A stretch of 64,000 bases of DNA, taken from assembly GCA_000165345.1 (NCBI GenBank), contig CM000436.1, forward strand, positions 1,056,001 through 1,120,000. Reading direction: 5' to 3'. Shown in pieces: positions 5,802 through 62,761 of the stretch (its first letter is position 1; each line of letters begins with the position of its first letter). The translations under genes and the position numbers were made by a program. Below the pieces are notes generated by a model. It ran no database searches, was not told where the DNA came from, and saw nothing but the letters and a program-made list of their open reading frames with translations.

Positions 5802-5971
5802 AAGATAATAAATATTAACAATATATGATATATTATATATATATGTATAGATATATTTATAAATATGCTATACATATACACAAATCTATGACTAAGTGAA
5901 TTGCCTAAGTTTAATAAAAAAAAAAAAAAGACGATACATATTCTCAATATTGTCTTTATTAAACGGATAGC

Positions 5972-10431: not shown

Positions 10432-10657
10432 TTTTATATGATTAAATTATAAGAATGGTTTGAATCTTGTTAATCATATTTTATTTGTCTAATATTGTAA
10501 AGATTTGATGAAATATTTACCATTCATATTCCTCATTATTAGTGTTTTTAAAGTTAATTTATAAGTATTATTTATATTTTAAAAAAAAACCAACTTGTTT
10601 CTTTTTAAATAAGTGTTATTTAATAATCAGTTAATACTTGTTTATTATTGACTAATA

Positions 10658-11740: not shown

Positions 11741-12397
11741 TATTTCTTTTTTTTTCTAGATTAAACTATATCAAATACTCTCTTCTTTGATTAATAATTA
11801 ATTTTTTTTCTCTGTAGAATATTATTATTATTCTACAATTCCATCCGAATTAATTAATCACAATTTTTTTTTCTTTAGTTATGTGTTATTTTAATTAAAT
11901 TGCATTATAATTAATTTATCGACATTTTTTAATGATTTTTTGGTGCATGTAATTGATGACGTCATTTTTTTTTTTTAAATTGAATTACGTCATTTTATCC
12001 ACATAAATATATACCGGTATTACATACATGCAAAAAATTATTATTCATAATACAATTTTTGCGCATGCAAAAAAAAAATGCAAGTTTGCTAATTTAGTCC
12101 ACATGAAATTGCATGCAAGTTTTTTAAGCTTAAAGAGATAAATAGAAAGAATTAAAAAAAAAATAATTGTTTTTGCATGTATATGCAAAGCCGGTATTCA
12201 ATAAAAGTCAGAAAATGAAAATTCATGCATAAATACATGTAAAAAAAAAATACATTTATGCATACAAGAAAGGAGTAATTCGTGATAATCTAAATTAAAT
12301 CAAAACAAGGGTATTTTCAAAATAATCTTCTTGTTATTTAATATTTAAAAAAATTATCAAATAAATAAAAAAGGTATTTAATTTTGAAAGAAGAATT

Positions 12398-13742: not shown

Positions 13743-13954
13743 GAGGGAGGGAAGAAAGAAAAAAACGAGATGAGCATTTACATTAATACCAAACAATAAA
13801 TAATACAAATTTTTTTGCATGTAAATGAATCTATAGTTTATTATTATAATTATTAATGATACAAACAGAAATTAACACTATTATATGATTAACAAATAAT
13901 TAATTTGTATCTTCTGTAATATGATCAAAACAAACTATTTTTTACTAATACAAC

Positions 13955-15007: not shown

Positions 15008-15292
15008 TTTCCTTCGGCCGTTCAGAATCATCCACACCGCTCGGAGTTCCAACCCAAGAAACTCCGCTGGGTCATCAATGCCGTGCAAGCATACATAAGC
15101 GCATTATCTGGACCAACTTAAACTCCAAAGGAGATAAGAGGAACCAGATAAGAGCAGAGTAGAAACAGGCTACGCTTCCCGTTTCCGGCGGGATGGATAA
15201 CTCATCGTCACGGACAGAGGTGTTGTCAAGAGCTGTAGCCCAATACGATCGGATTCACTATAGAAATGATCCCGTTCGAGTACAGTCGACAT
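15008..15292 (-). ncRNA. U3: U3 small nucleolar RNA (box C/D class), about 285 nt
   Basis: Minus-strand RNA begins 'GUCGACUGUACUCGAACGGGAUCAUUUCUAUAGUGAAUCCG'. This contains the U3 5' hinge/box A signature 'GGGAUCAUUUCUAUAGUG' (plus 15256-15273 reverse-complemented). Box C'-like 'CGAUGAG' is at plus 15201-15207, box B-like 'GGAAGCGUAGCC' at 15168-15179, box C 'UGAUGA' at 15072-15077 and box D 'CUGA' at 15022-15025, followed by 'ACGGCC' able to pair with 'CCGU' 5' of box C'. GC content is near 50%, well above the surrounding 25-30%. Confidence 0.8.
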
Positions 15293-23191: not shown

Positions 23192-26100
23192 ATGGCTAAA
23201 AATAATGGAATAAAAGATCTGAGTTCAGCTTTTAATGTAGTAAAGTATAAAAAGAAAGATCCTCATTTGAAAGTAATAAAGAGTAGAAATTCTAGTAAAA
23301 TAGAAAATTCATTAGATAAGAGAAAAGATAAATTGGGATTTAACGATCGTGATTTCCTTGAAAGAAAGAGGTCTATACTTAAAGAGTTATATTCAGAGGG
23401 AAGGAAGAGTGAATTTAATGATGAGAGAGAGAAGTTTGCTTTAAGAAAAGATTCTATTGGAGATAATTATCAGACTTTAATAGCTACTAAGCAATTAAAG
23501 AAGAAAGTTAAGAAGAGAAAGAATAACTTTAATTTGGACGAAGAAGAAGATGATGATAATGATTATAGAGGACATTCTGGTGAAAATTTAAATAATACTA
23601 GTACTAATGATTTAGAATTCACTCATCAAGGAAAATCTATTTCAGCCTTGGATGATAAGGCTATTCGTAAATATGATGGTAATATAGATGAGGATAATGA
23701 TTTCGATGATAATGATTATACTGGTAGCCGTAAAGGAGATAGTATTTTAGATGAGAAGAATATGCCAGGTTTTTTCTTTGGACAAGGAAATTCAGATGGA
23801 ACTTCTACTAAGTCTAGACAGGAGATATTTAAAGAAATTATGCAAAAGAGTAAGCTTGCAAAGATGGAGATGAAGAGACATAGAGAAAGTCTAGAGGAGG
23901 AGTTGGTTAATTTAGATAGTGCATTTTCTCAAGTTCAATCAATGCTTAGTTATAAACAGTCAAGAAAAGACAGAGTCAATTCTTTACTGAATAATATTAA
24001 TTCTAATTCTTCTGTTACTGATAATAATGGTAATGATAATAATATTCAGTCATCTGACAAGAATATTGAAGAATTGGATGAATATGAACAACTCAGAAAT
24101 CTTCTAAAGTTTGATACAAGAACTGGTGTTTCTGATAGAATTAAAACTGATGAAGAAATTGCAAAACTTAATGCTGAAAAACTTGAGAGGCTTGAAAAGG
24201 AGAGAAAAGAAAGAATGAATCTTGATGATTCCAATATTGACATTGACTTGAGTACTGAATCGGAAAATGAGTACTTTAAGGACGACTTTGATGATGAAGA
24301 TGGTGAAGAAGAGGACGGCTTTGAAGATGAAGAAGAAGATGAAGAAGAGGAAGAAGAAGAGGAAGAAGAAGAGGAGGAGGAAGAGGAGGAAGAAGAGGAG
24401 GAAGAAGAGGAGGAAGAAGAGGAAGATGAGGGACGGAAAGTAGAAAAGGACTGCTTTGAAGAGGAAGAAGAAGATGGGGAGGGGGAAGAAGAGGACGGTG
24501 AGGATGATGAGGAGAGAGTGAAACCCGCATCTAAAGGATTCATTGATTTCGAATTAAATGAAATTGATGAAATTGATTGGTTGGTGAACGATGAATCTGA
24601 ACCAAATTTACCATTTAGTGTTAATTTGAAGAAAATCTTGAAGGAATATAGTTTGAAGGGACTTATGGAATTTATGAATGGATTTTCTCCAAAATCTCAA
24701 TGGAAATTTATTTGCAGATTTAGATCATGCTTTAATAAGGGAGATACTGCAATGTTGAATGACTTAAAACTTCTTATTGGTTTTCTTATTAAATATCCAT
24801 TAAATTGTCTAAGAACAGCAGAATCAGATTCTGAAAAGAAGAATATTTTTCAATTTATTATTAATTATCTTAAGCTTATGAGTAGTCATTTATTATTTAT
24901 GGCAGAAACTGATCCAAAAGAATGCCTTATCATTTTCACTTACTTTACATTTGAAATTTGTCATACAACATTTCCAAGTGTTTATCACAAATATAAAAAA
25001 GTTGAAAAGTTTTTAAATGATAATCTTTTAAATGTAGAAAATGAAAACTATTATACTGAAATATTAGAAGAATGTCCATCTTTATACCAACTTTCTGAAG
25101 ATATATATGAACTGACTTTAGAACATATTGTGATATGTAGAATGATGTTTATATTATTCCCAGTTACTGATGCTCAACATCCAATATTAACTCCAGTTAT
25201 TATATGCTTGGAACAATGGGCTCACAGATGGAGTCAAGTTGGGAAATCTTTACTAAACACTAACACACCAGATCAAGATAGTGAAGAGTTTAAATACAAC
25301 CAAATAAGGCTTGTTGGGGGTAGTAACCCAAATATTAGTTGCATGATTGGAGTAATCTGTCTATTGGAGATATCTAGTATTGGTTATGCAAATAGTAAAT
25401 CAAATAATAATGGTAATGAATTGCTTGAAAGATTTAGTATTGGTTACTTTACTTTATCATTAAGTTGCCTTAAATGGCTGTTATTGTCTGATCCTGATAA
25501 TAATATTTCCATTGAAGAAAAAAGAATTTCATTATCAATAGGAATTCTTAAATCTTTAATTAGAGTAATTTCTGCTTTTAAAGATTTACAAGGGTTCCAT
25601 GCTATTATTATTCATCTTATCCGTGAAAATATCAAACAAATTAATGAATCATTAATGAAGATGGATAATTGTAAAGTATTGTTAAATTTGGTTTCTGAAA
25701 TTGAATCGATCTCTACAGAAATTGCCAATAGACCTCAAAAACCAATTAGTCTTTGTCCAAGACAAACTCCAACAATTAGATCTTTGATTCCCAAAATTGA
25801 TGATCCATCTGTTCCATTTGCTGCAAAAGCTATGCTTAGAGCCAAACATGGTCCCAAAGAATCCCAATATGAACATGAAAAGAAACATTATTTGTCTAGA
25901 TTGAAAAAAGAAGTCAATACTGCTAGAAGACAAGCCAGTAGACAACTTAGAAAAGATTCACAAGTGATTGCAAGTGCATGGCATGAAAATAGAACGGAAA
26001 AATCCAATAAACAAAATGCCAAGTATAATTCCTTCATGAAGATGTTAGAAGACGACCAAGCTGAATATAAGAGGATGAAGACTACAGGTGGAACCATGGA

Positions 26101-26194
26101 TACTTCAATTCAATCTTATAGAGCCAATAAACAAAACAAGAAGAAGAATCAAAAGATGGCTGGTAATAAAACTGCCAATGGTCTTGTCCACTAG
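23192..26194 (+). CDS. NOP14: NOP14-like nucleolar (SSU processome) protein, 1000 aa with a long poly-Glu tract
   Basis: The N-terminal block '...LKKKVKKRKNNFNLDEEEDDD...FTHQGKSISALDD...EIFKEIMQKSKLAKMEMKRHRESLEEEL' follows the NOP14 N-domain pattern (K-rich, FNLxDxE, THxGxSL..DD, KSK..K). An acidic region of about 50 consecutive E is encoded at 24290-24460. The C-terminal alpha-helical domain is not diagnostic. Confidence 0.6.
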   Translation: MAKNNGIKDLSSAFNVVKYKKKDPHLKVIKSRNSSKIENSLDKRKDKLGFNDRDFLERKRSILKELYSEGRKSEFNDEREKFALRKDSIGDNYQTLIATKQLKKKVKKRKNNFNLDEEEDDDNDYRGHSGENLNNTSTNDLEFTHQGKSISALDDKAIRKYDGNIDEDNDFDDNDYTGSRKGDSILDEKNMPGFFFGQGNSDGTSTKSRQEIFKEIMQKSKLAKMEMKRHRESLEEELVNLDSAFSQVQSMLSYKQSRKDRVNSLLNNINSNSSVTDNNGNDNNIQSSDKNIEELDEYEQLRNLLKFDTRTGVSDRIKTDEEIAKLNAEKLERLEKERKERMNLDDSNIDIDLSTESENEYFKDDFDDEDGEEEDGFEDEEEDEEEEEEEEEEEEEEEEEEEEEEEEEEEEDEGRKVEKDCFEEEEEDGEGEEEDGEDDEERVKPASKGFIDFELNEIDEIDWLVNDESEPNLPFSVNLKKILKEYSLKGLMEFMNGFSPKSQWKFICRFRSCFNKGDTAMLNDLKLLIGFLIKYPLNCLRTAESDSEKKNIFQFIINYLKLMSSHLLFMAETDPKECLIIFTYFTFEICHTTFPSVYHKYKKVEKFLNDNLLNVENENYYTEILEECPSLYQLSEDIYELTLEHIVICRMMFILFPVTDAQHPILTPVIICLEQWAHRWSQVGKSLLNTNTPDQDSEEFKYNQIRLVGGSNPNISCMIGVICLLEISSIGYANSKSNNNGNELLERFSIGYFTLSLSCLKWLLLSDPDNNISIEEKRISLSIGILKSLIRVISAFKDLQGFHAIIIHLIRENIKQINESLMKMDNCKVLLNLVSEIESISTEIANRPQKPISLCPRQTPTIRSLIPKIDDPSVPFAAKAMLRAKHGPKESQYEHEKKHYLSRLKKEVNTARRQASRQLRKDSQVIASAWHENRTEKSNKQNAKYNSFMKMLEDDQAEYKRMKTTGGTMDTSIQSYRANKQNKKKNQKMAGNKTANGLVH
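24290..24460 (+). repeat. (GAA/GAG)n trinucleotide tract inside the NOP14-like CDS, encoding about 50 consecutive Glu
   Basis: 'gaagaagaggaagaagaagaggaagaagaagaggaggagg...' is continuous. The antisense track ORFs 24046-24543 and 24276-24530 (poly-S/poly-L) are artifacts of this tract. Confidence 0.9.
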
Positions 26195-26840
26195 TTTTCT
26201 ATATTAGTATATATACTTTTTTCGTCATATATATGATTTTTGTTTTTAACTTAATTAACTTATATGTTTACGCTTTATTCTTTTTATTTCAAAGTGAAAT
26301 TTTATGATTTATGTCCAAATTCCTTTCTTTTTTTTTATCCACATTTCAAATTATTAATCAATTATTTAATTACTGGTTGCATGCATGCACGTATTCATTT
26401 TTGCAATTCTTACTACACCGGTATATAAGCAATTGATTTATGTAATTAATGTGGACATTACGTGTCTATTAATAATTACCGGTATACAGTTTAAAGAAAA
26501 AAAAAATGTAAATAGCAAATTGCGGGAAAAAAAATCATTGCAATTATTAAATAATATACAATTATGCAGGAAAATTGAAGGAATTAACAAAACTTCTAAA
26601 ACAATTATATTGCTTTTAATGCTGGTATATGAAGATCAAAAAAACGATTAATTATTATTTTCTTTTATCGTTTACTCTGGAATAGAGATAAGTTGATTAA
26701 CTTCAAGTATTTAAAAATAAATTGTGATAAATTTTAATAGAAATATTATTATTGAAGAAGATTTAATCAATTTAAGTTAATTTATGATTTACAAAGTTTT
26801 TTTAAAATACTGAGGTAATAATTCAGATGAATAAAAAACA

Positions 26841-33848: not shown

Positions 33849-36800
33849 ATGTTGAATTCTGTGGATGTTGATAAATCAGGTAGATTTGGAATATTTAGTA
33901 GGAAGGATGTTTATATATATAATTTAGATAGATGGAAAGATAGAATAGATGATGGGCTAGAATTTATTAAGGTAGATAAAGGAAAGAAGATAGGATTAAA
34001 GAAGTCTACAGAAGCAAGTAGTAACCTTAATTCAATTTTTATGGATGAATATGACCATAATAGTTCTAAGTATCCTGAAATAGTAAAATTTGGAACTCAT
34101 CCAAGTATGTATGGGAATTTCATAAATATTCAAGGGAATTTAATACTATATGGAAGTTTGGAAACTATTGGACTGGATTGTATTTCAACTCAGATGATGA
34201 ATATCAGTTCTTTTGACTGGAGTCCTCATTTTTCAACAGGTACTTTTGTAACAAGTTGTGAGGATGCGTTAATAAGAGTCTCAGATATAAGGAGTAAAAG
34301 TCTAGACTTATCATTCATGTCGTTCTATAATACAAATTGCATTAAATGGAATCCTTTAAATTCTTATTTAATAGGAGCTTTACATGAAAATGGAGAATTT
34401 TTAAGTATTTATGATCTTAGAGTTTTAAAGTCTACTGGTATAATATCTAGAAATCAGTGGCTAAATGATAATTTGAAAAGAAAGGAGAGAGAGACAAGAG
34501 GTAGAGAAAAGGGTAATACCGAATTTACATGGTTACCATTATCATCAGATAAAGTTTTGATTTCCGAAACAGATTATTTATGTATAATTGATTTTAAAAT
34601 AGCTATTGAAAGCTCTAATACAGCTTATAATAGTATTGCAGATTGTAATAATAATTTAAGAGTTAGAAATGGAGCACAATATATATCATTAACAAATCCT
34701 AATATTTCTCCAGATTTTGAAATACTCAACTTTTCATCAAGTTCGGTTGAAGAGGATGATGAACTAGGAGAGGATGAAGGTAATAGCTTAATGAATCAAG
34801 GTCATACTCAAGTTGATACAGAAATGGATATTCAGGATTTAAACTGGAAGAATAGAACAAATATAAAGGTTAATACATTTGATTTTTTACCAGGAACAAA
34901 TGATCTAATAATTAATGATAAAAATGGAAGATTCTACTTTAGTGAAATCAAATATAGCGATGATTTGGAACTTAAAAAGCTTAAATTAAAATATAGTGGG
35001 CCAGTAAAGAGAATTTTTTCAAGAGAAAATAATGGACTAACAGTTTTTGGAGGATTAAAAGCAGCAAGTCACTCAAGTATTAGTTATTTTGAAAGTGAAG
35101 AAAAAAATATAAAATATGATTTTTATGCAACTTCTTTACCACAAATAAATAATAAAAGAAATACTACAGAAGATGAAAAATACAAAATGTCAAACTTGAC
35201 ACTTCAAAGCTTCTGTTTGGACTGGTTTTATAGAGATTTGAATATGATCTATGAAAAAGTAAAGTTAAACCAACAAATGGCAAATAATCTAATATCAATT
35301 TCTATTGAGTCAAACGAAAGGATTATAGCAAAACTTTCAAGACATCCATCATTACGTGGGAAATTTGTAATGGAAGATAATACAAATCTTAATTTAGTTA
35401 TTGATTCTTTTGAATTTACAATAATTTTAACAACACAAAAAAATAATATTAAAGCTACTTATTATTTCACTAATAATACAATTCTCTTAATTAAAGAGAT
35501 TTTTTCATATCTTTCTATTATTGAAAAATCAGAATTAAATATTAATTCATGTGGACAAGAATTTAAAAAATTACAAAATTATGACTACACGTCACTAAAT
35601 TATTTGCATGTAAAAGAAAAAAATTACATGCAAAATTTAATACCGGTAAGAGTTTATGTGGATAATATAATATTGAATGGTAAAGAGAGAGAGAAATTGT
35701 GTGAATTATTTAGAATAGAACTTGATAAGGAATTATTAATATCATTATTTAATGAAACAGTGATAAGTAATAAAGCTCAAGTATCAAAGCAATTAATAGA
35801 TTGGGTATGGATTATTTCTAGTTTACCAGAATTAATATTTGGATTATTAATTCAAAATGATGGATCAAAAAAAGAACAACAATTAGAGTTAATATCATCA
35901 ACTAGAAAGCATGTATATGGGATAGGATTTGAACAACATGCAATAGTTGGTGAAAATTATGAGAAAAAAGCAAGAATTTCATTTACATTTAATACATTAG
36001 ATAAATTGATCATATCTCAAGGAAATTATTTAGTAGTAATGAAAGTGAATAATGAGGATGATTGGAATAGAGCTACAAGGTATGAGAATATATTGATTGA
36101 GATTAATGAAATGTTAAGAAAAGTGGAATATATTTCAGAGGAAAGGTTCTTATATGGAGATTATTTTAAATATGCATATGTACTATTTAGTTGGCTAACA
36201 AGAGTTTTATATAAGCAAAATAGAAGACGTAGTGTCAAGGATATACAGAATTTTAGTATAGATCCAACCAATATTGAAGAAAATTCAAATTTGAGTATGA
36301 TGTTATGTCCGACAGTTGTTCACTCATATTTTAAGAATAAAAGTGATGCTAATACATCTAGAAGACAGTTTGACCATATAATTGATTCTGTTACTCCTAT
36401 CACATACAAGTTTAATTTAACTTGTTCTAGTTCATCATGTTTTGATCAGATTGATAAAACAAAGCTTTTTATTTTACTAAAGAAATTATATTTGGAAATT
36501 AAAAATAATTATGATGCTAGAATTTTGGTGGTGGCTATTCAAAAGCTTTCAAATCATATAAAGAGAACCGAAGATTGGTATAAGTTAAAAAATGATTCAA
36601 AAATGGGATTAGGAAATCGATTAGAAGGAATGGGAGCAAATGAACTCATTTCAGAGTTGGAGTTGAATCCAGTATCATTATCTGAAATACAAAGAGGAGG
36701 AATAATATCAGATAATAATGGTTCAATTTTAGCTCATTCTGTTTCACCTTTTCCCTTGGATTTGACTTTATATTCAGAATATAAATCTACTCAAGTACTG

Positions 36801-36977
36801 AAACTTGCATCAGAAGCTTGCAGTATTTGTTTGGAACCAGTTTTTGGTCTTTATACACGTTGTATAAGTTGTAAGCATGGAGGTCATATAAAGCATATTA
36901 AAGATTGGTTCGAGGATAGGACAATATGCCCTATGGTAAACTGTAAATGCAAATGCGTCCCGGAAGAATGGAAGTAG
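33849..36977 (+). CDS. WD40-repeat protein with C-terminal RING-like Zn finger, WDR24/Sea2 (GATOR2)-like, 1042 aa
   Basis: N-terminal WD-like repeats ('...DWSPHFSTGTF...', 'IKWNPLNSYLIGALHENGEFLSIYDLRV'). The C-terminus 'CSICLEPVFGLYTRCISCKHGGHIKHIKDWFEDRTICPMVNCKCKC' follows the WDR24/Sea2 terminal RING pattern C-x2-C...C-x2-C-x-H-G-G-H-x2-H...W-F...C-P...C-x-C-x-C, as I recall it. Confidence 0.55.
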   Translation: MLNSVDVDKSGRFGIFSRKDVYIYNLDRWKDRIDDGLEFIKVDKGKKIGLKKSTEASSNLNSIFMDEYDHNSSKYPEIVKFGTHPSMYGNFINIQGNLILYGSLETIGLDCISTQMMNISSFDWSPHFSTGTFVTSCEDALIRVSDIRSKSLDLSFMSFYNTNCIKWNPLNSYLIGALHENGEFLSIYDLRVLKSTGIISRNQWLNDNLKRKERETRGREKGNTEFTWLPLSSDKVLISETDYLCIIDFKIAIESSNTAYNSIADCNNNLRVRNGAQYISLTNPNISPDFEILNFSSSSVEEDDELGEDEGNSLMNQGHTQVDTEMDIQDLNWKNRTNIKVNTFDFLPGTNDLIINDKNGRFYFSEIKYSDDLELKKLKLKYSGPVKRIFSRENNGLTVFGGLKAASHSSISYFESEEKNIKYDFYATSLPQINNKRNTTEDEKYKMSNLTLQSFCLDWFYRDLNMIYEKVKLNQQMANNLISISIESNERIIAKLSRHPSLRGKFVMEDNTNLNLVIDSFEFTIILTTQKNNIKATYYFTNNTILLIKEIFSYLSIIEKSELNINSCGQEFKKLQNYDYTSLNYLHVKEKNYMQNLIPVRVYVDNIILNGKEREKLCELFRIELDKELLISLFNETVISNKAQVSKQLIDWVWIISSLPELIFGLLIQNDGSKKEQQLELISSTRKHVYGIGFEQHAIVGENYEKKARISFTFNTLDKLIISQGNYLVVMKVNNEDDWNRATRYENILIEINEMLRKVEYISEERFLYGDYFKYAYVLFSWLTRVLYKQNRRRSVKDIQNFSIDPTNIEENSNLSMMLCPTVVHSYFKNKSDANTSRRQFDHIIDSVTPITYKFNLTCSSSSCFDQIDKTKLFILLKKLYLEIKNNYDARILVVAIQKLSNHIKRTEDWYKLKNDSKMGLGNRLEGMGANELISELELNPVSLSEIQRGGIISDNNGSILAHSVSPFPLDLTLYSEYKSTQVLKLASEACSICLEPVFGLYTRCISCKHGGHIKHIKDWFEDRTICPMVNCKCKCVPEEWK

Positions 36978-38663: not shown

Positions 38664-38736
38664 GGGGAACTAGCTCAGATGGTAGAGCGCTCGCTTAGCA
38701 TGCGAGAGGTGATCGGATCGATGCCGGTGTTCTCCA
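38664..38736 (+). tRNA. tRNA-Ala: tRNA-Ala (anticodon AGC), 73 nt, followed by a T5 Pol III terminator at 38738-38742
   Basis: GGGGAAC/GUUCUCC acceptor stem with the G3:U70 alanine identity pair and discriminator A73. D-arm is GCUC-AGAUGGUA-GAGC. Anticodon stem-loop is CUCGC-UUAGCAU-GCGAG, giving anticodon AGC. A T-arm is present and the gene is followed by 'cttttt'. Confidence 0.9.
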
Positions 38737-39123
38737 CTTTTTGCTCCCGCCAATTTATTTTCCATTAATATTTTTTCAAAGTGGTCATTGAATACATACG
38801 AAAATAAGTTAATATTAGAAAATAATGAAATGTTATTTGCCATTAAATTAAAATATTAAATTATTAATTCGACGATTACAATTTATTTCAAGCAACTAAT
38901 TACATATAAATATATTGTGTATAAACTAAATTGTTGAAAAGAAGAAGAAATTGTCTTTAAAATAATATTCTCTCCACTTAAGAATTTTCCTTTTCTTTTA
39001 TTTGCTCTTAATTAAATTAAATGATATGGTTTAAAAGTTGTTATTGTAAAATTTGAAATGATTTTAATAAAAGAAAAAGCATTTCACTTTTAAATCTTTT
39101 TTAGATATTGAAATCCAAATAGC

Positions 39124-43617: not shown

Positions 43618-44007
43618 AAAATAAACTCTTAATTTTTACAAGTAGAACTTTTCAAGATTACTTATTCTCTTTCTCTTAACTTGAAACTGAGATTCAAAAA
43701 AAAAAAAAAAAATGGATAAATGAATAACTTCAGAGCCTTACCCTGAGGGAGGAAAATAGTAATGTAATGAAAACAATAATAATAGTAATTTTGTGTTAGT
43801 ATCAATAAATAATGATTATTAATTAATAGTGCCACTACCTTCCAAAATACTCTTCTATAACAACTTGTTTTTGTTACAAATTGAACCCAATTTGCCCATA
43901 CAGATAGATAGATAATTTATCAAGCTTCCAAATTGTGCATATTTTTATAATTTTGCAATTCTGAAATATCTTCTTTTTTTCGCACTCTGATTAAAAAATG
44001 CAAACTA

Positions 44008-44096
44008 ATTTGGCGCCTAGTACACGTCATGTGGGGAGAAACCGGTACTATGCACAAGCATGCATATAGATTGAAATTTGGGCGGGTATTGAACAA
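44008..44096. promoter_or_regulatory. Composite motif cluster: ATTTGGCGCC, CACGTCA, ACCGGTACT, GCATGCAT, TTTGGGCGGG
   Basis: Direct reading of 44008-44096, inside the 1.6 kb intergenic region upstream of CNOT9. A second cluster 'CCGGCGCCAAATG...TTGGCGGTAAA' lies at 44922-44947. Confidence 0.4.
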
Positions 44097-44528
44097 AATG
44101 ATTTTTTTTTTTCTTATTAATTCAGAGATACAGAAGAGGGTAAGAAGTTAAATAAGAATTGGAAAGAATAGAAAAGATTAGATTTTTTAATTTCCGATTA
44201 AAAAGAATGTATTAATTCCACAATAAATTATAGAATTTAAATTTGAATTAGTAATGCAAGTAAATGGATCTATTTCATAAATTGTATCATAAATTTTGAG
44301 TAAAAATGGGTATAGCTGTTTAATCCTTTTCCTCTTCTATTTTGAAAGTCACAATGATTGTAGTGATAGAAAGATACTTCAAATTGAAAAAAAAGATTTT
44401 GAATAATTACTATCCTTACTAATTTTTTTTTCTTTTCTACCAATTTATTATATTTAACTATTTTTCCCAATTTACCTTCAATTCTATTATTTATCTTTCT
44501 ATTCAATAAAAACTCCTATAAGTCTATT

Positions 44529-44566
<38 letters not shown>

Positions 44567-45197
44567 CTCAAATTTAATAAATCTGTTAATTTTGAATATA
44601 AAATTTGCAAGTTAAGTGTTTAGCTGAGCGTACGAATATTTTATAATTTTGAAGATTACGCTTGAAGAAAATTGAAATATATAAAGGGAGAGAAAAGGAA
44701 AGCATTGGGGAGAAAAAAAAAAAAAAGACCGAATGCTAAGATAAAAAACAGTTTTGAAATAAAATTCTAAGAATATCCGTAAATGCCTTCAATATATTTA
44801 TTAAAGATATGTGCAATTGGATAAGCCATTAACTTGCATAATTTTTTATTTGAAATTTATTCCAAAAGTGACGGCAATAGTATTGAAGATAGGTGGGGAC
44901 TCAAGTAGACAAACAAAATGTCCGGCGCCAAATGTGTTGGCGGTAAACCGAGTTGTCAAATTTAATTTGGAAATTGAATGAAATAAAAGAAGCAAGGAAT
45001 TAAAATAAAACAGAATTAAAAAAAGGTTTTAAGTTAATGGATTTTTAAAATCGAAGAAATGAAAAGCCATTGAACGAGTTTATATAGAATCCAAATACAT
45101 TGTGCAGTTCTCTTTTTTGTTTTTTTCTTTTTTATCTTATATTAAAATAAAGTTAATCAAAGTAGAATTTTAATTTTTGGGAATCAATAAATAAGAA

Positions 45198-49636: not shown

Positions 49637-50048
49637 CATTGGTTATTTTTTTTTTTTTTGTTATAGGTATTATATTGGTATTTGAGTTACGTTGCATTTA
49701 TCTTACTTTCTTATTAACTCTTAATATTATTATTTTTTTTTTTTTTTAATAGCCCTTTTCATAACTTTAGTTGGTATCAATTTTGGCTCTAATTAGTGGC
49801 ATGCATTTTGCTTGCACACATTTCTTGTATTTGATTCAAAAGAAAGAGGGATATAGTTTTTTTCTTTTAACTTAAGTTTCATTCTTTATATTCTTCTAAC
49901 AATTATTAATTAATTTAATTCATGTATTTCAATTAATGAATTTTGTTTAGATATAAATAGTATCTTGCATTATTAATATTTTTTAAATAAATAACTAATT
50001 TTTTCTTTAAGTTGAATTACATTAAAAAAACACGTAAGAATCAAAAAA

Positions 50049-50086
50049 TTTCCCGCCCATTCGTGTAAAATTTGACTTGCATGCAT
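50049..50086. promoter_or_regulatory. TTTCCCGCCC (E2F-like) plus TTGCATGCATAC upstream of gene 50380
   Basis: Direct reading. Confidence 0.35.
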
Positions 50087-50379
50087 ACATTTAGATGAGG
50101 GGAGTAAAAATAAGTGCAAGAAAAAAGTGTGTTATAAAGTTCAAAGTGAAACATTAAAATTTTTTAAATAATTGAATTCGATTCTTTTTTTGTGAAAATA
50201 TTGTTTTTTCTAATATTATTATTATTATTACCACTATTAACGAGAAGATAATACAAATATATATTTAAAAAATTAAAAAAAAAAAAAAAAAAGTAAAGCA
50301 TTCTATTTATTCTAAGAATGGAAAAGTAATTTTAAAAAAAAAATCAATATATAAGTTAAGTGACAATTAATGTAACAAA

Positions 50380-55116: not shown

Positions 55117-55305
55117 TTAATTAACTTATTATTTCTCATTATTTAATTATTCGAGTATCTACTTACTTAAAAATACAAAAAGTTTCAAGATAAAAAAGCC
55201 AATTTCTAATTATAAAGCTAGAAATAAATACTAAATAATAATTCCTTATTTATTTATTTATTTTTAACAGGTATTATATTTATCATTATTAATATTATTA
55301 TTTTT

Positions 55306-55356
55306 GCATGCACATTATCAAATATTTGAACTGGCGCCACTCTTTGGCGCCAACCG
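55306..55356. promoter_or_regulatory. TTGCATGCAC followed by CTGGCGCCAC and TTTGGCGCCAACC upstream of PI4K
   Basis: Direct reading. Confidence 0.4.
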
Positions 55357-55802
55357 TGAATAATTTACTAAAATTATATGGAGGTTATTTAAGTAGAAAA
55401 TAAAGAGATAAACAACTTAGGGACTTTATTTACTTTTCTTTTCTTTTTTTTTTAATAAATATAATTATATATTTTTAAAGTGTCATAAAGTAAGGAAAAG
55501 TATTTGAGGGAGAAGAAAATTGGTTCAGAGTTTAAGTTAAGAAGTTTAAATTCCTCTAATAGAATAATTGAAGGTATTTAAAGATTGGTAGCTTTTGATT
55601 AATTTTGTAATTTAACAGATCTATAAGTAATTTCAATAAATAATTGAGATATAATAACACTTAAAAATTAAAAAGTAATTTTAATAACAATTTTTTTTTT
55701 TAATTTGAATTTTAAATTAATTAATTGGACTTTTTTTTTTAAAAAACAATTCTTCTTCTGAATGAGAGCTTTACTAACGAATAATTATATATTATAAACA
55801 AA

Positions 55803-58800
55803 ATGGTAGAAGGATGGCTAACCACTTCAAAATCTATGTCAGGTTTGTTTGGTAAAAGCTTGATTTCAAAGCAAAAAAGTACAAGTGGAAGTATAAATTT
55901 TAATGATGATGAATTAACAGATAACATTGTAGTAGATTTAGGTGACTTTTCAAATAATAATAATAATAAAAGTGATAACTTATATTCTAGAAAAGATTCA
56001 AAAGGAGGAGAATTTGATAAAAGTAAAGGCTCACTACTGAGATTATTTCAATCAGATGTATTTGATGCTCACCTACATTTATATTATATATATCATCATA
56101 AAGAATTTGGAGTTCATGAATATCTTGTAAACTTATTATATGAAAGATCTGATGAGATTTTATGGTATTTACCACAATTATGTGAAATATCTTTAAATAG
56201 ATTTGAGAAGAGTAGCCTTTGGAAATATTTTCTTGATAAATCGAGTGAAAATATGAACTTTTCTTTGATACTTTCTTGGATGTATCAAGCAATGAATGAA
56301 GATAATATACCATTAATTTCAGAATATGCTCAAAATATGCTTCAAGAAATTGAAATGGCAATGGTAAATAGCAAACTTAAGCCTGATATTAGATATATAG
56401 AAAAGAGATTATATTTTTGGAGAAGGTCCAATTTATCTGTTTTTCAGTCACTTTGTAATCAAAATATGAAATTGAATGATATTGAAGATGAATTTAAAGA
56501 TAATGATAACACAATGTTAATGAATCGTGAAAATACCAATACTCAATTATCTTTAGCAATTTACTCAACTCTTCCTAGTAGTGAAACAATAAATTTGAAT
56601 GAAAGTGATGATTTAAATCAAGATGATAATAATAGAATAATATCTTCAGATATAAATACAAATACGATTCCAAATAATAATTCAAAAACAATTAAACTTT
56701 CATCTTGTGATGTTTTACCTGATATTTGGATTTATAGAATTATTAATGATGATTTTAGTTGTGAAAATAAAGCAAAGATTGAATATATACAAACAAAACT
56801 TGGATTAATAAATCGTCAATTTAAGAATTTATATTCAAATGCAACTTGTGCTGCTTATTATAATCCAAATCCAGGAACATCTTTAAATTATAAAAGTGGA
56901 GTTTCATCAAGTGCTTTTGGTTCATTAAACTCAGGATTTTTACCAACAAGTATAATATCAGGATCATCATCTTTTGGTACATTTAGTTCAGGTGGAAATT
57001 CTAATAAAGTTTCAATACCTTACTTTTTCTTTTCAAAATTAGGTTCTCCATTTGATTTAATTGATGTTAATAAGATAATAAATGATATTCAATTTAGATC
57101 AAAATCTAGAATAAACTTGATAAATAAGAGCCATAATTTTAATGTACAAGATAATAGTTCTGAAGATACAGTATCTATTCCAAAAACCCCAAGAGACGTG
57201 ATAAGAATTACTCATCCTTTTTCTCCTTGTTCAGAAACAGAATCAGAAACTAACAATTTGGATTTGGATGATAATGGTACTTTTGAGGAGATAAAATTAG
57301 CTCCAGATTCAAATGTTTGTAGTGATAATGATAATAAGAAGATACCAATATTAACACCAAATTCAACCAAAATAATAGAATGCTTAGAAAATTTATCAAA
57401 TGAGAATTCTGGTTCCCCAATACAATTAAATGATGATATTCTTAGAAATGAAGAAATATTTAAAGTATATATATCTGAAATTGAAAAAGAGAGTGAAACA
57501 CTTTATTATTTACTTAAACAACATAGATATAATTACTTTAATAGAGTAAATCAACTTGTTTCACAATTTCTTGAAATTTCAAATTACTTGCAATCAAATA
57601 TTAATAAAGAACATAGATGTGAGATTTTGGAATTTATTATAGAAGAATTAAATCTTTGGCTCTTTTATTCAAGATTTTCAATTTCAATTTCAAGAACAAC
57701 ATTTTTATTAAATAGTATTTCTTTACCAATGCCATCATTTAATAATGAATTTTGTAGTAGATTTTCAGAAAATGATAGTTTTAATTCAAATAATAAAGAT
57801 GGGAATAGTAAAGGTATAATTGGATTTTCTCACTCAGATTATATTATGGATAAAGGTTTATGTTCTCTAAATAATTGCCAATTTTTACGTATAATTCCAA
57901 ATGAATGTAAAATTTATAATTCCAGAAAAAGAGTTCACTTTTTATTAGCAATTGAAATTGCAGATCTTGATGATCAAGATTATGAGCTTGGAAAGAATTC
58001 TCAAGATTTAATTTCTAAGGATATTTTAAATTATCTCAAAAATCATGGAATTAAACTTAAAACTGATAATAATGATGAAAATCAAAATAGATCCCAAGAT
58101 ATATTGCTTAATTTTCTTAATATACTTTCTGTTGGTATTTCAGAATCAATTGATATGGGCTTATCTCAAGAAGACTTTAACCAAATAACTTTTATTGATA
58201 ATAAAGATTCTGATGAGATTGAAGATTCTAGTATTCATGATAATGAATTAAGTGATGAAGATATATTTATTAATAAAGATTGGCCTCAAGAAACTTGGTC
58301 AAGTAAGATTAAGAGATATAGAAAAGAATCACCCTACTCAAAATTAAAGAGTTGGGGTATTAAAACACTTTTGTTAAAATCCTCAGATGATCTTAGACAA
58401 GAATATCTTGCATCTCAATTACTTCAACAATTTGATTGGATTTTTAAAATTAATAAATTACCCTTATGGCTTCATCCATATGAAATACTTGTAATTGGTT
58501 CTCATGGTGGATTTATTGAATATATTCAAGATACTTTCTCCATAGATAGCCTTAAACGTAGATTCCAGACTGATAATCTTTTGAATTGCTTTGATCAGTT
58601 ATTTAAAGATGAGGAACTTAAATCTAAAGCAAGGAAATGTTTTGTTGAAAGTCATGCTGCTTATAGCCTTGTTAGTTATTTCCTTCAAGTTAAAGATAGA
58701 CATAACGGTAATTTCTTAATTGATAAGCATGGCCACATTATTCAAATTGATTACGGGTTTATGTTAAGTAATTCTCCTGGTAATGTAAATTTTGAGCAAA

Positions 58801-59147
58801 GTCCTTTCAAATTAACTCAAGAATTTCTTGACGTCATGATGGGTGAAAACTCTTCTGATTTCCAATATTTTCAACAACTTATTATTAAAGGATTCTTAGC
58901 CTCCAGAAAACATGTTGACCAAATTGTTTTAACCATTGAATCTATGACTTCAGCATCCAAACTTCCTTGTTTCTCTTTGTTTACAAACAAGGAATACTTT
59001 ATTCAAGATATTAGAGATCGTTTCTTTCTTCATCTTACTGAGGAACAATGTGTTGTTAAAGTCACAGAATTAATTCAATCTTCAATAAATAATTGGAGAT
59101 CCATTCAATATGATGCATTCCAACGAATTACCAATGGAATTCTTTAG
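55803..59147 (+). CDS. PI4K: Phosphatidylinositol 4-kinase (PI4KIII-beta/Pik1-like), 1114 aa
   Basis: C-terminal PI3/PI4-kinase catalytic domain: 'GIKTLLLKSSDDLRQEYLASQLL', catalytic loop 'VKDRHNGNFLID', activation segment 'IDYGFML', 'SPFKLTQEFLDVM'. The long N-terminal region is low-complexity. Confidence 0.85.
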   Translation: MVEGWLTTSKSMSGLFGKSLISKQKSTSGSINFNDDELTDNIVVDLGDFSNNNNNKSDNLYSRKDSKGGEFDKSKGSLLRLFQSDVFDAHLHLYYIYHHKEFGVHEYLVNLLYERSDEILWYLPQLCEISLNRFEKSSLWKYFLDKSSENMNFSLILSWMYQAMNEDNIPLISEYAQNMLQEIEMAMVNSKLKPDIRYIEKRLYFWRRSNLSVFQSLCNQNMKLNDIEDEFKDNDNTMLMNRENTNTQLSLAIYSTLPSSETINLNESDDLNQDDNNRIISSDINTNTIPNNNSKTIKLSSCDVLPDIWIYRIINDDFSCENKAKIEYIQTKLGLINRQFKNLYSNATCAAYYNPNPGTSLNYKSGVSSSAFGSLNSGFLPTSIISGSSSFGTFSSGGNSNKVSIPYFFFSKLGSPFDLIDVNKIINDIQFRSKSRINLINKSHNFNVQDNSSEDTVSIPKTPRDVIRITHPFSPCSETESETNNLDLDDNGTFEEIKLAPDSNVCSDNDNKKIPILTPNSTKIIECLENLSNENSGSPIQLNDDILRNEEIFKVYISEIEKESETLYYLLKQHRYNYFNRVNQLVSQFLEISNYLQSNINKEHRCEILEFIIEELNLWLFYSRFSISISRTTFLLNSISLPMPSFNNEFCSRFSENDSFNSNNKDGNSKGIIGFSHSDYIMDKGLCSLNNCQFLRIIPNECKIYNSRKRVHFLLAIEIADLDDQDYELGKNSQDLISKDILNYLKNHGIKLKTDNNDENQNRSQDILLNFLNILSVGISESIDMGLSQEDFNQITFIDNKDSDEIEDSSIHDNELSDEDIFINKDWPQETWSSKIKRYRKESPYSKLKSWGIKTLLLKSSDDLRQEYLASQLLQQFDWIFKINKLPLWLHPYEILVIGSHGGFIEYIQDTFSIDSLKRRFQTDNLLNCFDQLFKDEELKSKARKCFVESHAAYSLVSYFLQVKDRHNGNFLIDKHGHIIQIDYGFMLSNSPGNVNFEQSPFKLTQEFLDVMMGENSSDFQYFQQLIIKGFLASRKHVDQIVLTIESMTSASKLPCFSLFTNKEYFIQDIRDRFFLHLTEEQCVVKVTELIQSSINNWRSIQYDAFQRITNGIL

Positions 59148-59290
59148 TACCTTTCATTTACACTTGTATCGCTATTAATGATACAGGAATATTTCTTTTC
59201 TTTTAATAATAATAATAAAATCTAAAATATAACCTTATATTTTTATTAATTATTTCTCTCTTTAAATAAAATTCACTCTTTTTTCAACTA

Positions 59291-59333
59291 TTATCCACAT
59301 GACGTCATTTTTATTGCATGCATGCAGTGGCGC
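59291..59333. other. Promoter-like composite motif TTATCCACATGACGTCATTTTTATTGCATGCATGCAGTGGCGC sitting between two convergent 3' ends
   Basis: The same module (TTATCCACA + (T)GACGTCA + ATGCATGCA) appears in the divergent promoter 11741-12397 and around 26334-26488 and 29277-29380. Here the neighbouring genes end at 59147 and 59525, so neither can use it as a 5' promoter. Confidence 0.4.
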
Positions 59334-59524
59334 AAATGATAACAATAATTTGACACGTAATTATATTTATTAAATGTTAAATAACAGACATTACAAAACA
59401 CGGAATGAAAAGAAATTAAAAAAAAAATCATTAATATCCAATGCTAGTACTATCTATATTAGATACAAAACATGCAACCTATCCAATTAATTGTGAAACT
59501 AATTTGTGAGCAAAAACGAACCCT

Positions 59525-62500
59525 CTAATTATTATTCCACATATTGTTATTATGTTGTAGGAATCCAGAATTACTACCAGTTCTAGACGAATGGAAGCCT
59601 GGGAAATTTACAGAAGTTTGCTTTGATTGAGCAGACCCAACTTGTCCTGCCTGGCCAGCCGTATTCTGTGCTCTTCCTGGTAGAAACATGCTTGAATTGC
59701 CAGAACTTGAATTACCTCCAACTCCCTGGCCTTGGTGAGCTAAATCCATTCCTGAACCTACCGTTGCCCCATTTACAGCACCTGAAGGGTTGCCAGGTGC
59801 GGAATTACCACTTGTACCATTTGGAGTACCAGAACCAGTATTACTCGACCCCGATCCAGCTGGTTTACCTATATATTGTATATTCCCCTGAAAGTTGCTA
59901 GCAGCGCTTTGGCTATTGCCTTTAGAATGACTGTTTGGATTACCAGTATTTGGATTTCCTTGAGAATTAATGTTTGCATTAGATGTAGGATTCTGAATGT
60001 GGCCATGATGGTTACCGTAGCTTTGGTGATGTATAAAATCTCCTGGATGAGCTCCAATATTATCCAGTTTATTGTTATTAGTAGTACTTGGTTGTCCCAA
60101 AAAAACTGCTTGAGGAATTGTCTGATCTACACCAAACTCGTTTGATCCCCCATTATTATTGAAACCCATTGGTAAATTCATCTGATTTTGTAGAGAATTC
60201 CCACTTCCATTTGGCTGTTGGCTTCCTATACCCATTTGCTGGTGTGACATACCTGGAGGAAGAATTGACTGAATATTTTGGTATGAACTTGGATTTTGGC
60301 TACTCATGTGATGATTATGTGCAGAATTTCCTCCCATTGTTATCGGTGATTGGTTATTTGACGAGTGATAGTTCACACCAATACCATCAGATACCATCAC
60401 ATTTCCAGATGTATTGTTATTAACTGCCGTATTTCCTGATCCCCCTGCTCCACCTCCAATTCCATATACTCCGTTCAATCCATGTTGACTTGGATTTGGT
60501 CCTTGTGAGTATTGATTAAAAACTGGAGTTGGGTGATGATGGCCATTTGGCTTAGTATTATAATGAGGGAAACCAAATGCTGCAGTATTTCCAACCATAT
60601 AGGGGAAATTTGCCGTATATCCTGCATAGTTCAAATATGCATAGTTATATGGATTTGCTGCTGCTGCTGCTGCTGCTGCTGCCGCTGCCAAAGCCATATT
60701 AGAGTTATTCCCATTAGATGCACTGCCTGAATTACCACCATTTGATCCAGTACTGCCGCCTACAACTGTCTCGTTATAATTCATACCGCTATTACCAGAT
60801 AATAAAGTTGGATTTGATGAATAAACACTACCACTACCTACCATTCCTTGTCCTGCTATTGGTAAGTTGTTATAGTTATTAATTGCACTCCCAGAAATTG
60901 AGTGACCCATATATCCATTTCCAATACCAGAAGATTTTATAGAAGTATGTACATTGGATCCAGACACACCTGATCCTCCAGAAGAAACTCCTGATCCACT
61001 ATTTCTCTGTGAAGCATTTTGGTGTAATAGTCCTTGATCTACAACCATACCACTCGTAGAACCATCTTTTGATGGAGATGAACCGCTAGTATTCCATCCA
61101 TTCAATAAATGACTTCCTGTTACACCAGCACCACCAATTCCACTTGTATTTTCTGAAATACCTGTCACTACCGACATGGCGCCAACATTTGAAGCCCCAA
61201 TATTACCAGTGTGACCCCCCCCAGCTGTATATGAGGAATTAGTAGAAACCCCAGATGATTGATTTTGGACGCTATTGGAGTTATTATCAGAAACTATACT
61301 ATTATTGATTTGGACTTGATTTTCTGGAATTTTGCTGATATCAACAGCACCAAAGCTACCAAATAGGAGTCCATCATTAGCATTAGGATCGATTGTTCTA
61401 CCTTCTGGAAGAAATACTCCAATTCCATGTGACTTATAATCAATTCCACCACCTATTTGTATTCCATGTGGTGGGGAAATTCCTCCAACTTTAATTCCAA
61501 GGTCAATTGCAGTAATTCCAGAACCAGTCATTGAATTTGGTGAGTATATGTTCGAGGTTGATGGAGAGGAGCTTTGAGTATTATCGTTGACAAAATTTGA
61601 AGATACAATCTGTTCTTTTATAGTCTTTTCAAAAGGCTTTGATATTAAGCTAGAAGTTTCCTGTGTGTTTTCTTGTTCCTGATGTTGTCTGGTAGAAGCT
61701 GAGTGATCTTGTGATAATTTCTCCTTAGTTATAGTATCATTTGAGGAGTTCTTATGATCTTTATTGTTACTATTAGTGGTTTGAGACTTTTCTAAAGTAC
61801 TTCCGATATCCTTATTATTGTTTTTGCGAGCCAAATTAGCCCATGTAGTAGTGTTATCTACTGGATTATTGGAGATACTTGCTTTTGTAGCGCTAACATG
61901 AGTGACAACTGGATTTGAACCAATTGTTGTTGCGACCTTTGAAGCATTATTTGATTCTTGTTGTATACTTTGATCTCCTGTTGTTCTTGCCTGGTGAGAG
62001 TGATTTTGGTTTTGTGTTTGAGTATGACCATGACCATGACCATGACCATGCCTCTGTCCGTGGCCATGACTATGGCCTTGAACATGGCCTTGGCCATGAC
62101 CATGACCGTGACCGTGACTGTGACCGTGATTGTGATTGTGATTGTGACCATGACCGTGTACATTGTGCTTAATAGACTTGTTATTGGACTTGTTATAGTT
62201 TGTATTAGTACCTTCGACATGGTTTTGGCTTTGGTTTTGGCTTTGGTTTTGGTTCTGACTTTGACTTTGGTTTTGAATTTGACTTTGATTATTTTGCGAA
62301 TGAGTTTGTTTACCAGATTTAATAGAATTAGTATTATTAGAATTCTTATTCCTATTGACATTATTGTTATTTACATTTGTAGAATTTGTGTTATTTTGCT
62401 TTAAGCCTCCATTTGTCCTATTCTTACCAACCTTTGTCCATTGCCCTGATTCATGACCACTAAAATCCTCAATGACATTGCCTACAGCAAGTTCTATTTG

Positions 62501-62761
62501 ATTGGCATCGTAATGGCATCTATGTATTAAATCAGAAATCTCATTTAGATTGAAGTTATATGGTTCTAATACAGGGGTCAATTCTCTGACCCACTTTGCA
62601 GTTCTTGGAGACATGGGAGTATCAACAATAGCTGGTTGAACATTTATTCTTCTATAATAGTCCTCATTTATTGTAGAATTTGGCTCCTTAGAATTAGACT
62701 TGTTATTTCCTGCAATAGCAGAATTCTTATTAGCTCTCAAATTTCTTGCTCGAGCTGACAT
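59525..62761 (-). CDS. Large low-complexity protein (1078 aa) rich in N/Q/G/S with a His-Gly repeat block and a poly-Ala run; a short structured N-terminal region
   Basis: Continuous 3.2 kb ORF. N-terminal 100 aa 'LNEISDLIHRCHYDANQIELAVGNVIEDF' looks like a small helical (UBA/CUE-like?) module. 'HGHGHNHNHNHGHSHGHGHGHGQGHVQGHSHGHGQRHGHGHGHGH' is encoded at 62030-62160 and 'AAAAAAAAAAA' at about 60660-60700. The many track ORFs inside it on both strands are artifacts. Confidence 0.55.
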   Translation of the reverse strand: MSARARNLRANKNSAIAGNNKSNSKEPNSTINEDYYRRINVQPAIVDTPMSPRTAKWVRELTPVLEPYNFNLNEISDLIHRCHYDANQIELAVGNVIEDFSGHESGQWTKVGKNRTNGGLKQNNTNSTNVNNNNVNRNKNSNNTNSIKSGKQTHSQNNQSQIQNQSQSQNQNQSQNQSQNHVEGTNTNYNKSNNKSIKHNVHGHGHNHNHNHGHSHGHGHGHGQGHVQGHSHGHGQRHGHGHGHGHTQTQNQNHSHQARTTGDQSIQQESNNASKVATTIGSNPVVTHVSATKASISNNPVDNTTTWANLARKNNNKDIGSTLEKSQTTNSNNKDHKNSSNDTITKEKLSQDHSASTRQHQEQENTQETSSLISKPFEKTIKEQIVSSNFVNDNTQSSSPSTSNIYSPNSMTGSGITAIDLGIKVGGISPPHGIQIGGGIDYKSHGIGVFLPEGRTIDPNANDGLLFGSFGAVDISKIPENQVQINNSIVSDNNSNSVQNQSSGVSTNSSYTAGGGHTGNIGASNVGAMSVVTGISENTSGIGGAGVTGSHLLNGWNTSGSSPSKDGSTSGMVVDQGLLHQNASQRNSGSGVSSGGSGVSGSNVHTSIKSSGIGNGYMGHSISGSAINNYNNLPIAGQGMVGSGSVYSSNPTLLSGNSGMNYNETVVGGSTGSNGGNSGSASNGNNSNMALAAAAAAAAAAANPYNYAYLNYAGYTANFPYMVGNTAAFGFPHYNTKPNGHHHPTPVFNQYSQGPNPSQHGLNGVYGIGGGAGGSGNTAVNNNTSGNVMVSDGIGVNYHSSNNQSPITMGGNSAHNHHMSSQNPSSYQNIQSILPPGMSHQQMGIGSQQPNGSGNSLQNQMNLPMGFNNNGGSNEFGVDQTIPQAVFLGQPSTTNNNKLDNIGAHPGDFIHHQSYGNHHGHIQNPTSNANINSQGNPNTGNPNSHSKGNSQSAASNFQGNIQYIGKPAGSGSSNTGSGTPNGTSGNSAPGNPSGAVNGATVGSGMDLAHQGQGVGGNSSSGNSSMFLPGRAQNTAGQAGQVGSAQSKQTSVNFPGFHSSRTGSNSGFLQHNNNMWNNN

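Follow-up and report, generated by a model that had tools for sequence, protein, structure and literature searches.

A conserved promoter-type module between the converging 3' ends of the Cryptosporidium PI(4)K gene and its neighbour: a candidate promoter of antisense transcripts

What is a cluster of promoter-type motifs doing in a place where two genes end and none begins? The question is raised by a 377-bp gap, 59148-59524, in a 64-kb stretch of Cryptosporidium parvum DNA (GenBank assembly GCA_000165345.1, contig CM000436.1, positions 1,056,001 to 1,120,000 of the forward strand; hereafter the window, whose own numbering is used throughout). The gap is faced by two 3' ends, that of the PI(4)K gene, which ends at 59147, and that of a minus-strand open reading frame (ORF) of 1078 aa, which stops at 59525. 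An earlier note, made from the DNA letters alone, had placed a motif module at 59291-59333 between these ends; its coordinates, its sequence and the orientation of both neighbours proved exact. We find that the feature is real, conserved and functional-looking, and that two things set it apart: neither side offers a protein-coding gene for it to serve, and it adjoins a drug target, PI(4)K. We consider it rather probable that the module is a promoter that starts antisense transcripts, and probably a bidirectional one. This is the best-supported reading, and it rests on analogy and conservation.

The module lies 144 nucleotides (nt) past the PI(4)K stop and 164-234 nt short of the stop of the other gene (Table 1). 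Its AP2_1 element, TGCATGCA, has been described upstream of protein-coding genes as a promoter element to which cgd2_3490 and other AP2 domains bind in vitro (PMC3734150, PMC4117751), and two exact matches to the consensus (TGCATGCA / BGCATGCAH) stand here in non-coding DNA. Within TTATCCACATG, the shorter word TTATCCACA starts at 59291. The published counterpart of TTATCCACATG, Motif5 (TTGTCCACATK), is enriched within 100 bp upstream of C. parvum long non-coding RNAs (lncRNAs) according to Table S3 of Li et al. 2021 (PMC7840661), where the five motifs are E2F/DP1, ApiAP2 (ANTTGCATGYA), a T run, one repeat motif and Motif5. Neither the 25 upstream motifs listed by Oberstaller et al. 2013 nor the motif table of a 2025 review includes TCCACAT. 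In the main texts of the literature we found no mention of TCCACA/TGTGGA as a Cryptosporidium motif; it appears only in Table S3 of Li et al.

The presence of the module in the PI(4)K gap is more than chance. TCCACAT followed by GCATGC at a distance of 0-30 nt occurs twice in the window (0.04 expected), as does TGCATGCATGCA (0.00 expected), and TTRTCCACAT occurs nine times (0.42 expected). All 10 copies of TGCATGCA in the window are intergenic, and every gap that holds one, the PI(4)K gap apart, contains a gene 5' end.

We next consider conservation. The convergent gene arrangement was kept in all 11 loci that were fetched from genomes and assemblies by way of the PI(4)K protein. The alignment took in eight intestinal-clade species (C. 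parvum, C. hominis, C. tyzzeri, C. meleagridis, C. ubiquitum, C. canis, the species of SRR31860986 and C. felis), with PI(4)K protein identities of 68-100%. The gap spacer is largely unalignable among them except for collinear islands. TCCACAT and GCATG are invariant in all eight, and ACGTAA is nearly so. The TGACGT of TGACGTCA is retained in five of the eight species, and T runs precede TCCACAT in most. The composite TCCACAT-N(0-30)-GCATG occurs exactly once in each ~15-kb locus of the eight species, always in this gap. In degree, the conservation of the module equals that of the E2F sites in the neighbouring genes' own promoters.

A second island, which we call block 2 (AAATCATTAAT.T.CAAT...ATACAAA), is conserved in the eight species by primary sequence and without RNA structure; in the fetched loci L001, L002 and L003 it lies at 9650-9700, 7703-7760 and 9663-9720. 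Its distance from TCCACAT is constant at 114-136 nt, in contrast to the flanking spacers, which vary (146-206 nt and 82-170 nt). Among gastric and bovine species, the orthologous gap is much longer in C. andersoni (1201 bp; L006 9013-10213) and in C. ryanae and C. xiaoi (616 and 605 bp; L005 9280-9895 and L011 9289-9893), and the latter two have a different conserved block in common, ACACTACATAC.T..T..TTATACTATATAATATA. Counts of shared k-mers between distant species were uninformative, being dominated at k=5-7 by AT-rich low-complexity words.

Other candidates in the gap were set aside. GTGGCGC at 59327 is probably not part of the element, because this tail already differs in C. hominis (CTGACGC) and C. 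tyzzeri (GTGACAC); reading it as an E2F half-site was dropped, as it is not kept among the closest species. An inverted ATCATTAAT copy on the left-hand side (59175-59183, minus strand) is absent in C. hominis, C. tyzzeri and C. meleagridis and was treated as chance. The resemblance of TTATCCACA to a bacterial DnaA box was judged a coincidence at a eukaryotic nuclear locus, its TTAT part being replaced by G/AG in other species. A small conserved ORF was likewise rejected: the longest in the gap encode 46 aa and 38 aa, with start codons that C. meleagridis has not kept.

Where else in the window does such a module occur? The earlier note had pointed to the divergent promoter gap 11741-12397 as having the same order and composition. 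The composition agrees, with exact TGACGTCA at 11957, TTATCCACA at 11995 and TGCATGCA at 12110. The order agrees in part only: TGACGTCA comes before TTATCCACA there, and it is the compact sub-module GTCCACATGAAATTGCATGCA at 12097-12117 that repeats the motif order of the PI(4)K gap. The closest twin of the module, 33 kb away, is instead the promoter of the published lncRNA Cp_lnc_393, one of 396 C. parvum lncRNAs, 92% of which are antisense with a bias to the 3' end of the sense gene (PMC7840661). Over 611 nt, Cp_lnc_393 is identical (100%) to the minus strand at 25696-26306, where it runs antisense to the 3' end of the gene at 23192-26194 (plus strand). Counted from the stop of that gene, the lncRNA has its 5' end 112 nt further on, at 26306, inside AAAT^CATAAAA.

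The PI(4)K gap and the Cp_lnc_393 promoter (26306-26466) have TTATCCACAT, TGCATGCATGCA and GACACGTAAT as exact matches, with a T run before TTATCCACAT and the first two sites in the same order, and a block of A run and TCATT..CAAT is collinear on the far side. TGCATGCATGCA and exact GACACGTAAT occur in the 64 kb only at these two places, the second copy of GACACGTAAT being on the minus strand. Aligned with each other, the two regions scored 150.6, compared to 116 +/- 9.6 for 200 shuffles (maximum 142.8). The differences are also clear. The genes at Cp_lnc_393 are in tandem and the plus side can serve the mRNA of a SKIP/SNW homologue (ATG at 26841), whereas the neighbours of the PI(4)K gap converge, so that neither direction can yield anything but antisense or non-coding output. 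At Cp_lnc_393 GACACGTAAT is inverted, and TACCGGTA sites are present there and absent from the PI(4)K gap. Finally, a transcript is documented at Cp_lnc_393 and only predicted at the PI(4)K gap.

Table 1. Features of the PI(4)K gap, its neighbours, the Cp_lnc_393 twin and an intragenic module (window coordinates)
Feature	Position	Strand	Description
PI(4)K gene, left neighbour	55803-59147	+	ORF of 1114 aa; Pfam PI3_PI4_kinase domains; cgd8_4500 orthologue
Predicted minus-strand start zone	59235-59268	-	point estimate ~59262
Pyrimidine/T run TTCACTCTTTTTTCA	59271-59285	+	resembles Motif3 of Li et al.; weak on its own
TTATCCACATG	59291-59301	+	matches published Motif5 TTGTCCACATK; core TCCACAT 59294-59300
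TGACGTCA	59300-59307	+	palindrome resembling a cAMP-response element (CRE-like); partly conserved
TGCATGCATGCA	59315-59326	+	two overlapping ApiAP2_1 sites TGCATGCA at 59315 and 59319; core GCATG 59320-59324
GACACGTAAT	59352-59361	+	third conserved site; core ACGTAA 59356-59361
Block 2	59417-59475	+	A10 + TCATTAAT.T.CAAT...ATACAAAACATG; conserved in 8 species
Predicted plus-strand start zone	59428-59446	+	A-run+TCATT context; Motif3 at -14 to -42 in Table S3
Right neighbour	59525-62761	-	low-complexity ORF of 1078 aa; stop codon 59525-59527
Twin T run TCCTTTCTTTTTTTT	26320-26334		Table S3 Motif3 at -28 of Cp_lnc_393
Twin TTATCCACAT	26335-26344		141 nt past the upstream gene's stop (144 nt at PI(4)K)
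Twin TGCATGCATGCA	26378-26389		Table S3 Motif2 at -78
Twin ATTACGTGTC	26457-26466		reverse complement of GACACGTAAT
Twin far-side block	26527-26545		collinear A run + TCATTGCAAT
Intragenic module	35549-35665		TTGTCCACAT (minus strand) 35549; ACGTCA 35589; TGCATG 35605; CATGCA 35627; TACCGGTA 35641; TTATCCACAT (minus strand) 35656

The earlier note had also offered a general function in termination or insulation between convergent genes. Any TGCATGCA or TCCACAT was found in one of the nine ORF-defined convergent gaps, 59148-59524 itself, and none of the other eight has the module, a count made at the scale of the window, where some gaps hold exons of spliced genes. A general function of this kind thus failed the recurrence check, and a locus-specific roadblock role is possible. 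Bound factors might serve the flanking genes as a roadblock or insulator against read-through, or as a downstream regulatory element, for example by looping to the PI(4)K promoter. Consistent with such a role, the module sits between predicted poly(A) signals (AATAAA at 59214 and 59265 on the plus strand; TTTATT at 59310 and 59366 for the minus strand) and at a constrained distance from block 2, the gap with the PI(4)K promoter carries TGCATGCA conserved in several species, and no lncRNA of the locus turned up among the published sequences covered (324 of 396). However, the motifs are missing from the other convergent gaps and are elsewhere tied to gene 5' ends, the twin module has a mapped transcript start 29 bp away, and a Cryptosporidium review describes no roadblock system (the string 'terminat' does not occur in it). 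On this evidence we regard service to the flanking genes as distinctly unlikely.

The conserved sequences could also act in RNA rather than in DNA. We think the evidence points to protein binding to DNA, because two of the sites (TGCATGCA and TGACGTCA) are palindromic, as is typical where DNA is bound by dimers, because C. felis has the ACACGTAA site in inverted orientation, and because divergent promoter gaps, which have no 3' ends in them, are filled with these motifs as well. At the RNA level, the sequences would function in the 3' untranslated region (UTR) or in 3'-end processing, in which case block 2 would provide the minus-strand gene with its poly(A) signal and the module would be part of a lengthened 3' UTR. 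Block 2 indeed falls 82-170 nt past the minus-strand stop, a plausible 3'-UTR length; its minus strand in C. parvum reads UGUA...AUUAAUGA followed by a U run, and in C. ubiquitum and C. canis it opens with AGTAAA on the plus strand. In contrast, the U run is not kept in C. canis or in the species of SRR31860986, and the eight other convergent gaps are without these motifs. Moreover, block 2 contains AAAAATCATT (an A run with an initiator-like TCATT), whose three copies outside the PI(4)K gap all point at a gene 5' end; two of these copies lie in divergent gaps without 3' ends. An RNA-level function therefore appears very unlikely overall; for the module a 3'-UTR role is unlikely, and for block 2 it is a live alternative.

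A structured small non-coding RNA (ncRNA) gene, resembling those of small nucleolar (snoRNA) or small nuclear RNAs, would make the conserved blocks its promoter and body. In favour of such a gene, module and block 2 keep a constant spacing although the sequence has turned over, and C. parvum has 43 novel intergenic ncRNAs of intermediate size that are conserved in the genus. Nevertheless, Rfam searches (gathering threshold and E<=10) returned only chance-level microRNA matches in the gap, and ARAGORN found no tRNA. The RNAalifold consensus reached just -0.56 and -0.02 kcal/mol on the two strands, where one and zero pairs were compensatory. C/D boxes are missing, and conservation is lacking for the T run able to terminate RNA polymerase III. 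We consider a gene of this type extremely unlikely. The earlier note had proposed an unannotated transcription unit in the gap: its small ncRNA version finds no support, with no Rfam or tRNA match and no conserved structure, while its antisense or overlapping 3' transcript has become the best-supported reading by analogy with lncRNA-upstream motifs and with the Cp_lnc_393 twin.

How might the module work as a promoter of antisense transcripts? The T run, Motif5 (TTATCCACATG), TGACGTCA, the double ApiAP2_1 site TGCATGCATGCA and GACACGTAAT would together form a cluster of transcription-factor sites acting on DNA. The cluster would be housed in a nucleosome-free 3' region shared by the two convergent genes. 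ApiAP2 proteins at TGCATGCA and other factors at the TCCACAT and ACGT sites would recruit RNA polymerase II. A non-coding minus-strand transcript would start at ~59262 and run antisense through the PI(4)K 3' UTR into kinase-domain codons. This start point was placed ~39 nt from the far end of TTATCCACATG, as in the Cp_lnc_393 twin (-39), and the range of the start zone was taken from five Motif5 cases of the same geometry (-33 to -66). Relative to the predicted start, the two ApiAP2_1 sites, Motif5 and the T run (59271-59326) would fall at about -10 to -65, within the reach of the motifs upstream of antisense lncRNAs, and the T run TTCACTCTTTTTTCA would appear on the minus strand as an A/G run just upstream. 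The locus also resembles antisense lncRNA loci in its position at a sense-gene 3' end and in its coding capacity: in 2.5 kb of either predicted transcript, ATG-initiated ORFs reach at most 72 aa on the plus strand and 53 aa on the minus strand, below 90 aa.

Table S3 gives some basis for the direction. It lists 19 Motif5 instances in 18 lncRNAs, and for 11 of these lncRNAs the AP2 motif is listed within the same 100 bp as well. Motif5 is on the strand opposite to the transcript in 13 of the 19 instances, and it is closer to the start than the AP2 motif in eight of the 11 lncRNAs with both. The commonest layout, with Motif5 on the opposite strand and nearer the start than AP2_1, accounts for five of the 11.

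On the other side, a plus-strand transcript antisense to the neighbouring gene would start at ~59430, at the block of A run and TCATT. Block 2 would supply its core promoter and start region, and the 114-136-nt spacing from TCCACAT would be the width of one bidirectional promoter unit. We take block 2 as a start region because the 5' end of Cp_lnc_393 lies in AAAT^CATAAAA and because of where AAAAATCATT is placed. The four copies of AAAAATCATT in the window (11931-11940, minus; 26530-26539, plus; 44097-44106, minus; 59423-59432, plus) are all intergenic and adjoin promoter modules. Their number is not enriched (2.8 expected), and the evidence for a start-site element is for this reason suggestive only. 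It is by inference that we speak of transcription here, of its direction and start points, and of any effect on PI(4)K.

Several observations weigh against a promoter of antisense transcripts at this locus. C. ryanae, C. xiaoi and C. andersoni lack the module in the orthologous gap. Probes over 58940-59955 on the relevant strands found no match in 324 of the 396 lncRNA sequences of Li et al., with a control probe that did find Cp_lnc_393. This miss is unsurprising, because the predicted transcripts lie directly downstream of, and share a strand with, the other convergent gene, a position in which read-through and independent transcription are hard to separate (PMC7840661). Peaks of accessible chromatin in sporozoites (assay for transposase-accessible chromatin with sequencing, ATAC-seq) are reportedly dominated by E2F and without AP2 motifs, and activity would therefore be expected in stages other than the sporozoite. 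The basis for the direction is small, with five precedents versus one, and we found no conserved initiator-like element on the minus-strand side. Block 2, as discussed above, may have a different role, that of poly(A) signal for the minus-strand gene.

Two further lines did not discriminate. A/T skew, with A-rich 5' leaders (+0.13) and weakly T-rich 3' UTRs (-0.04), does not separate the transcript directions, and the Logan contig with PI(4)K (3462 bp) has flanks of just 85 and 32 nt, making it uninformative on transcripts. The CpBGF annotation contains 766 lncRNAs derived from Iso-Seq; the identifiers cgd8_4505, cgd8_4510 and cpbgf_80045xx gave no hits in the searchable literature text.

A stronger version of the promoter reading may be entertained, though on balance we think it unlikely. 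The gap would hold a dedicated promoter without a protein-coding gene, maintained since before the eight intestinal species diverged, and antisense transcription from it, or the occupancy of its sites by factors, would tune or gate PI(4)K and its neighbour in a stage-specific manner. The effect might come about by transcriptional interference or by blocked polymerase collision, and the ~130-bp spacing would represent a fixed nucleosome-free unit.

PI(4)K is the leading cryptosporidiosis drug target, that of KDU731/EDI048. If the promoter reading is true, a deeply conserved promoter of antisense type beside its 3' end would offer a mutable handle on PI(4)K expression over the life cycle. Because no protein-coding gene can claim the promoter, the locus would also be a clean test of whether antisense promoters are dedicated and selected or are by-products of bidirectional mRNA promoters. 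In addition, it provides a phylogenetic footprint for TTGTCCACATK and its partners ACACGTAAT, TGACGTCA and TACCGGTA.

The genes around the gap were characterized as follows. The window has a G+C content of 29%, and its ORFs are long and intron-poor. Over 14.2 kb it matches chromosome 8 of a C. parvum assembly at 99.86% identity, which places it on that chromosome. The PI(4)K ORF belongs to a 90%-identity cluster in common with the PI4K proteins of C. parvum Iowa II (EAK89585.1), C. hominis, C. meleagridis and C. tyzzeri; cgd8_4500 goes by the name CpPI(4)K in the paper on EDI048 (PMC11522000). The 1078-aa protein encoded by the right neighbour is of extreme low complexity, with His-Gly and Gln-Asn-Ser repeats and an Ala run of 13 residues, and no Pfam match was found for it. 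The gene list is based on ORFs, and gene boundaries in the window are approximate. The ORF-defined gaps 4732-5971, 10432-11023 and 12932-13954 contain further exons of spliced genes, recognizable as frame-like sequence with GTAAGT...AG introns. A U3 snoRNA lies at 15016-15289 on the minus strand (Rfam ACEA_U3, 126.5 bits), and a tRNA-Ala(AGC) gene at 38664-38737 on the plus strand; Rfam and ARAGORN showed no other known RNA genes in the window.

Beyond these genes, two nearly exclusive classes of promoter are apparent in the window. Gaps with TCCACAT always have TGCATGCA and are without E2F sites (GGCGCC/GGCGGG), and gaps with E2F sites are without TCCACAT; GCATGC or TGCATGCA is mixed with E2F sites only in 43618-45197, 49637-50379 and 55117-55802. 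A further word, ACCGGTA, mostly as the palindrome TACCGGTA, gives 11 strand-hits at seven sites (12012, 26417, 26477, 29337, 35641, 40959 and 44041), compared to 0.92 expected in the window. These sites are mostly in gaps of the AP2_1/TCCACAT class or in the intragenic module, with 40959 and 44041 in other gaps; there are none in the PI(4)K gap. ACCGGTA does not appear in the published C. parvum motif lists, that is, the 25 upstream motifs and the motif table of the 2025 review. The intragenic module, at 35549-35665, is of promoter type and lies within the coding ORF 33849-36977 (plus strand); it could be an internal or antisense promoter.

How does the PI(4)K gap compare with systems already known? 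In yeast, antisense promoters occupy 3' nucleosome-free regions, and bidirectional promoters are a feature of compact eukaryotic genomes. Bidirectional promoters are likewise described in the compact genome of Giardia (cited in PMC7840661). The likeness of the PI(4)K gap to these systems is architectural only: a region of factor sites at gene 3' ends, poly(dA:dT) runs pointing outward and proposed divergent starts ~170 bp apart. With respect to the AP2_1 cis-element, the gap has an exact double match but no protein-coding gene to drive. The comparison is closest with the antisense lncRNA promoters of C. parvum, for which Li et al. favour bidirectional promoters shared with an upstream mRNA and report conservation for the parvum/hominis comparison (PMC7840661). 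The PI(4)K gap differs from these promoters in that its transcript is predicted, in that its module stands between two 3' ends with no upstream mRNA promoter to share, and in that conservation of the module extends far beyond parvum and hominis. Like them, it lies at a sense-gene 3' end and has AP2_1 and Motif5 no more than a few tens of bp apart. In conclusion, the feature in the PI(4)K gap most likely belongs to the known AP2_1/Motif5-type promoters of antisense lncRNAs at C. parvum gene 3' ends.

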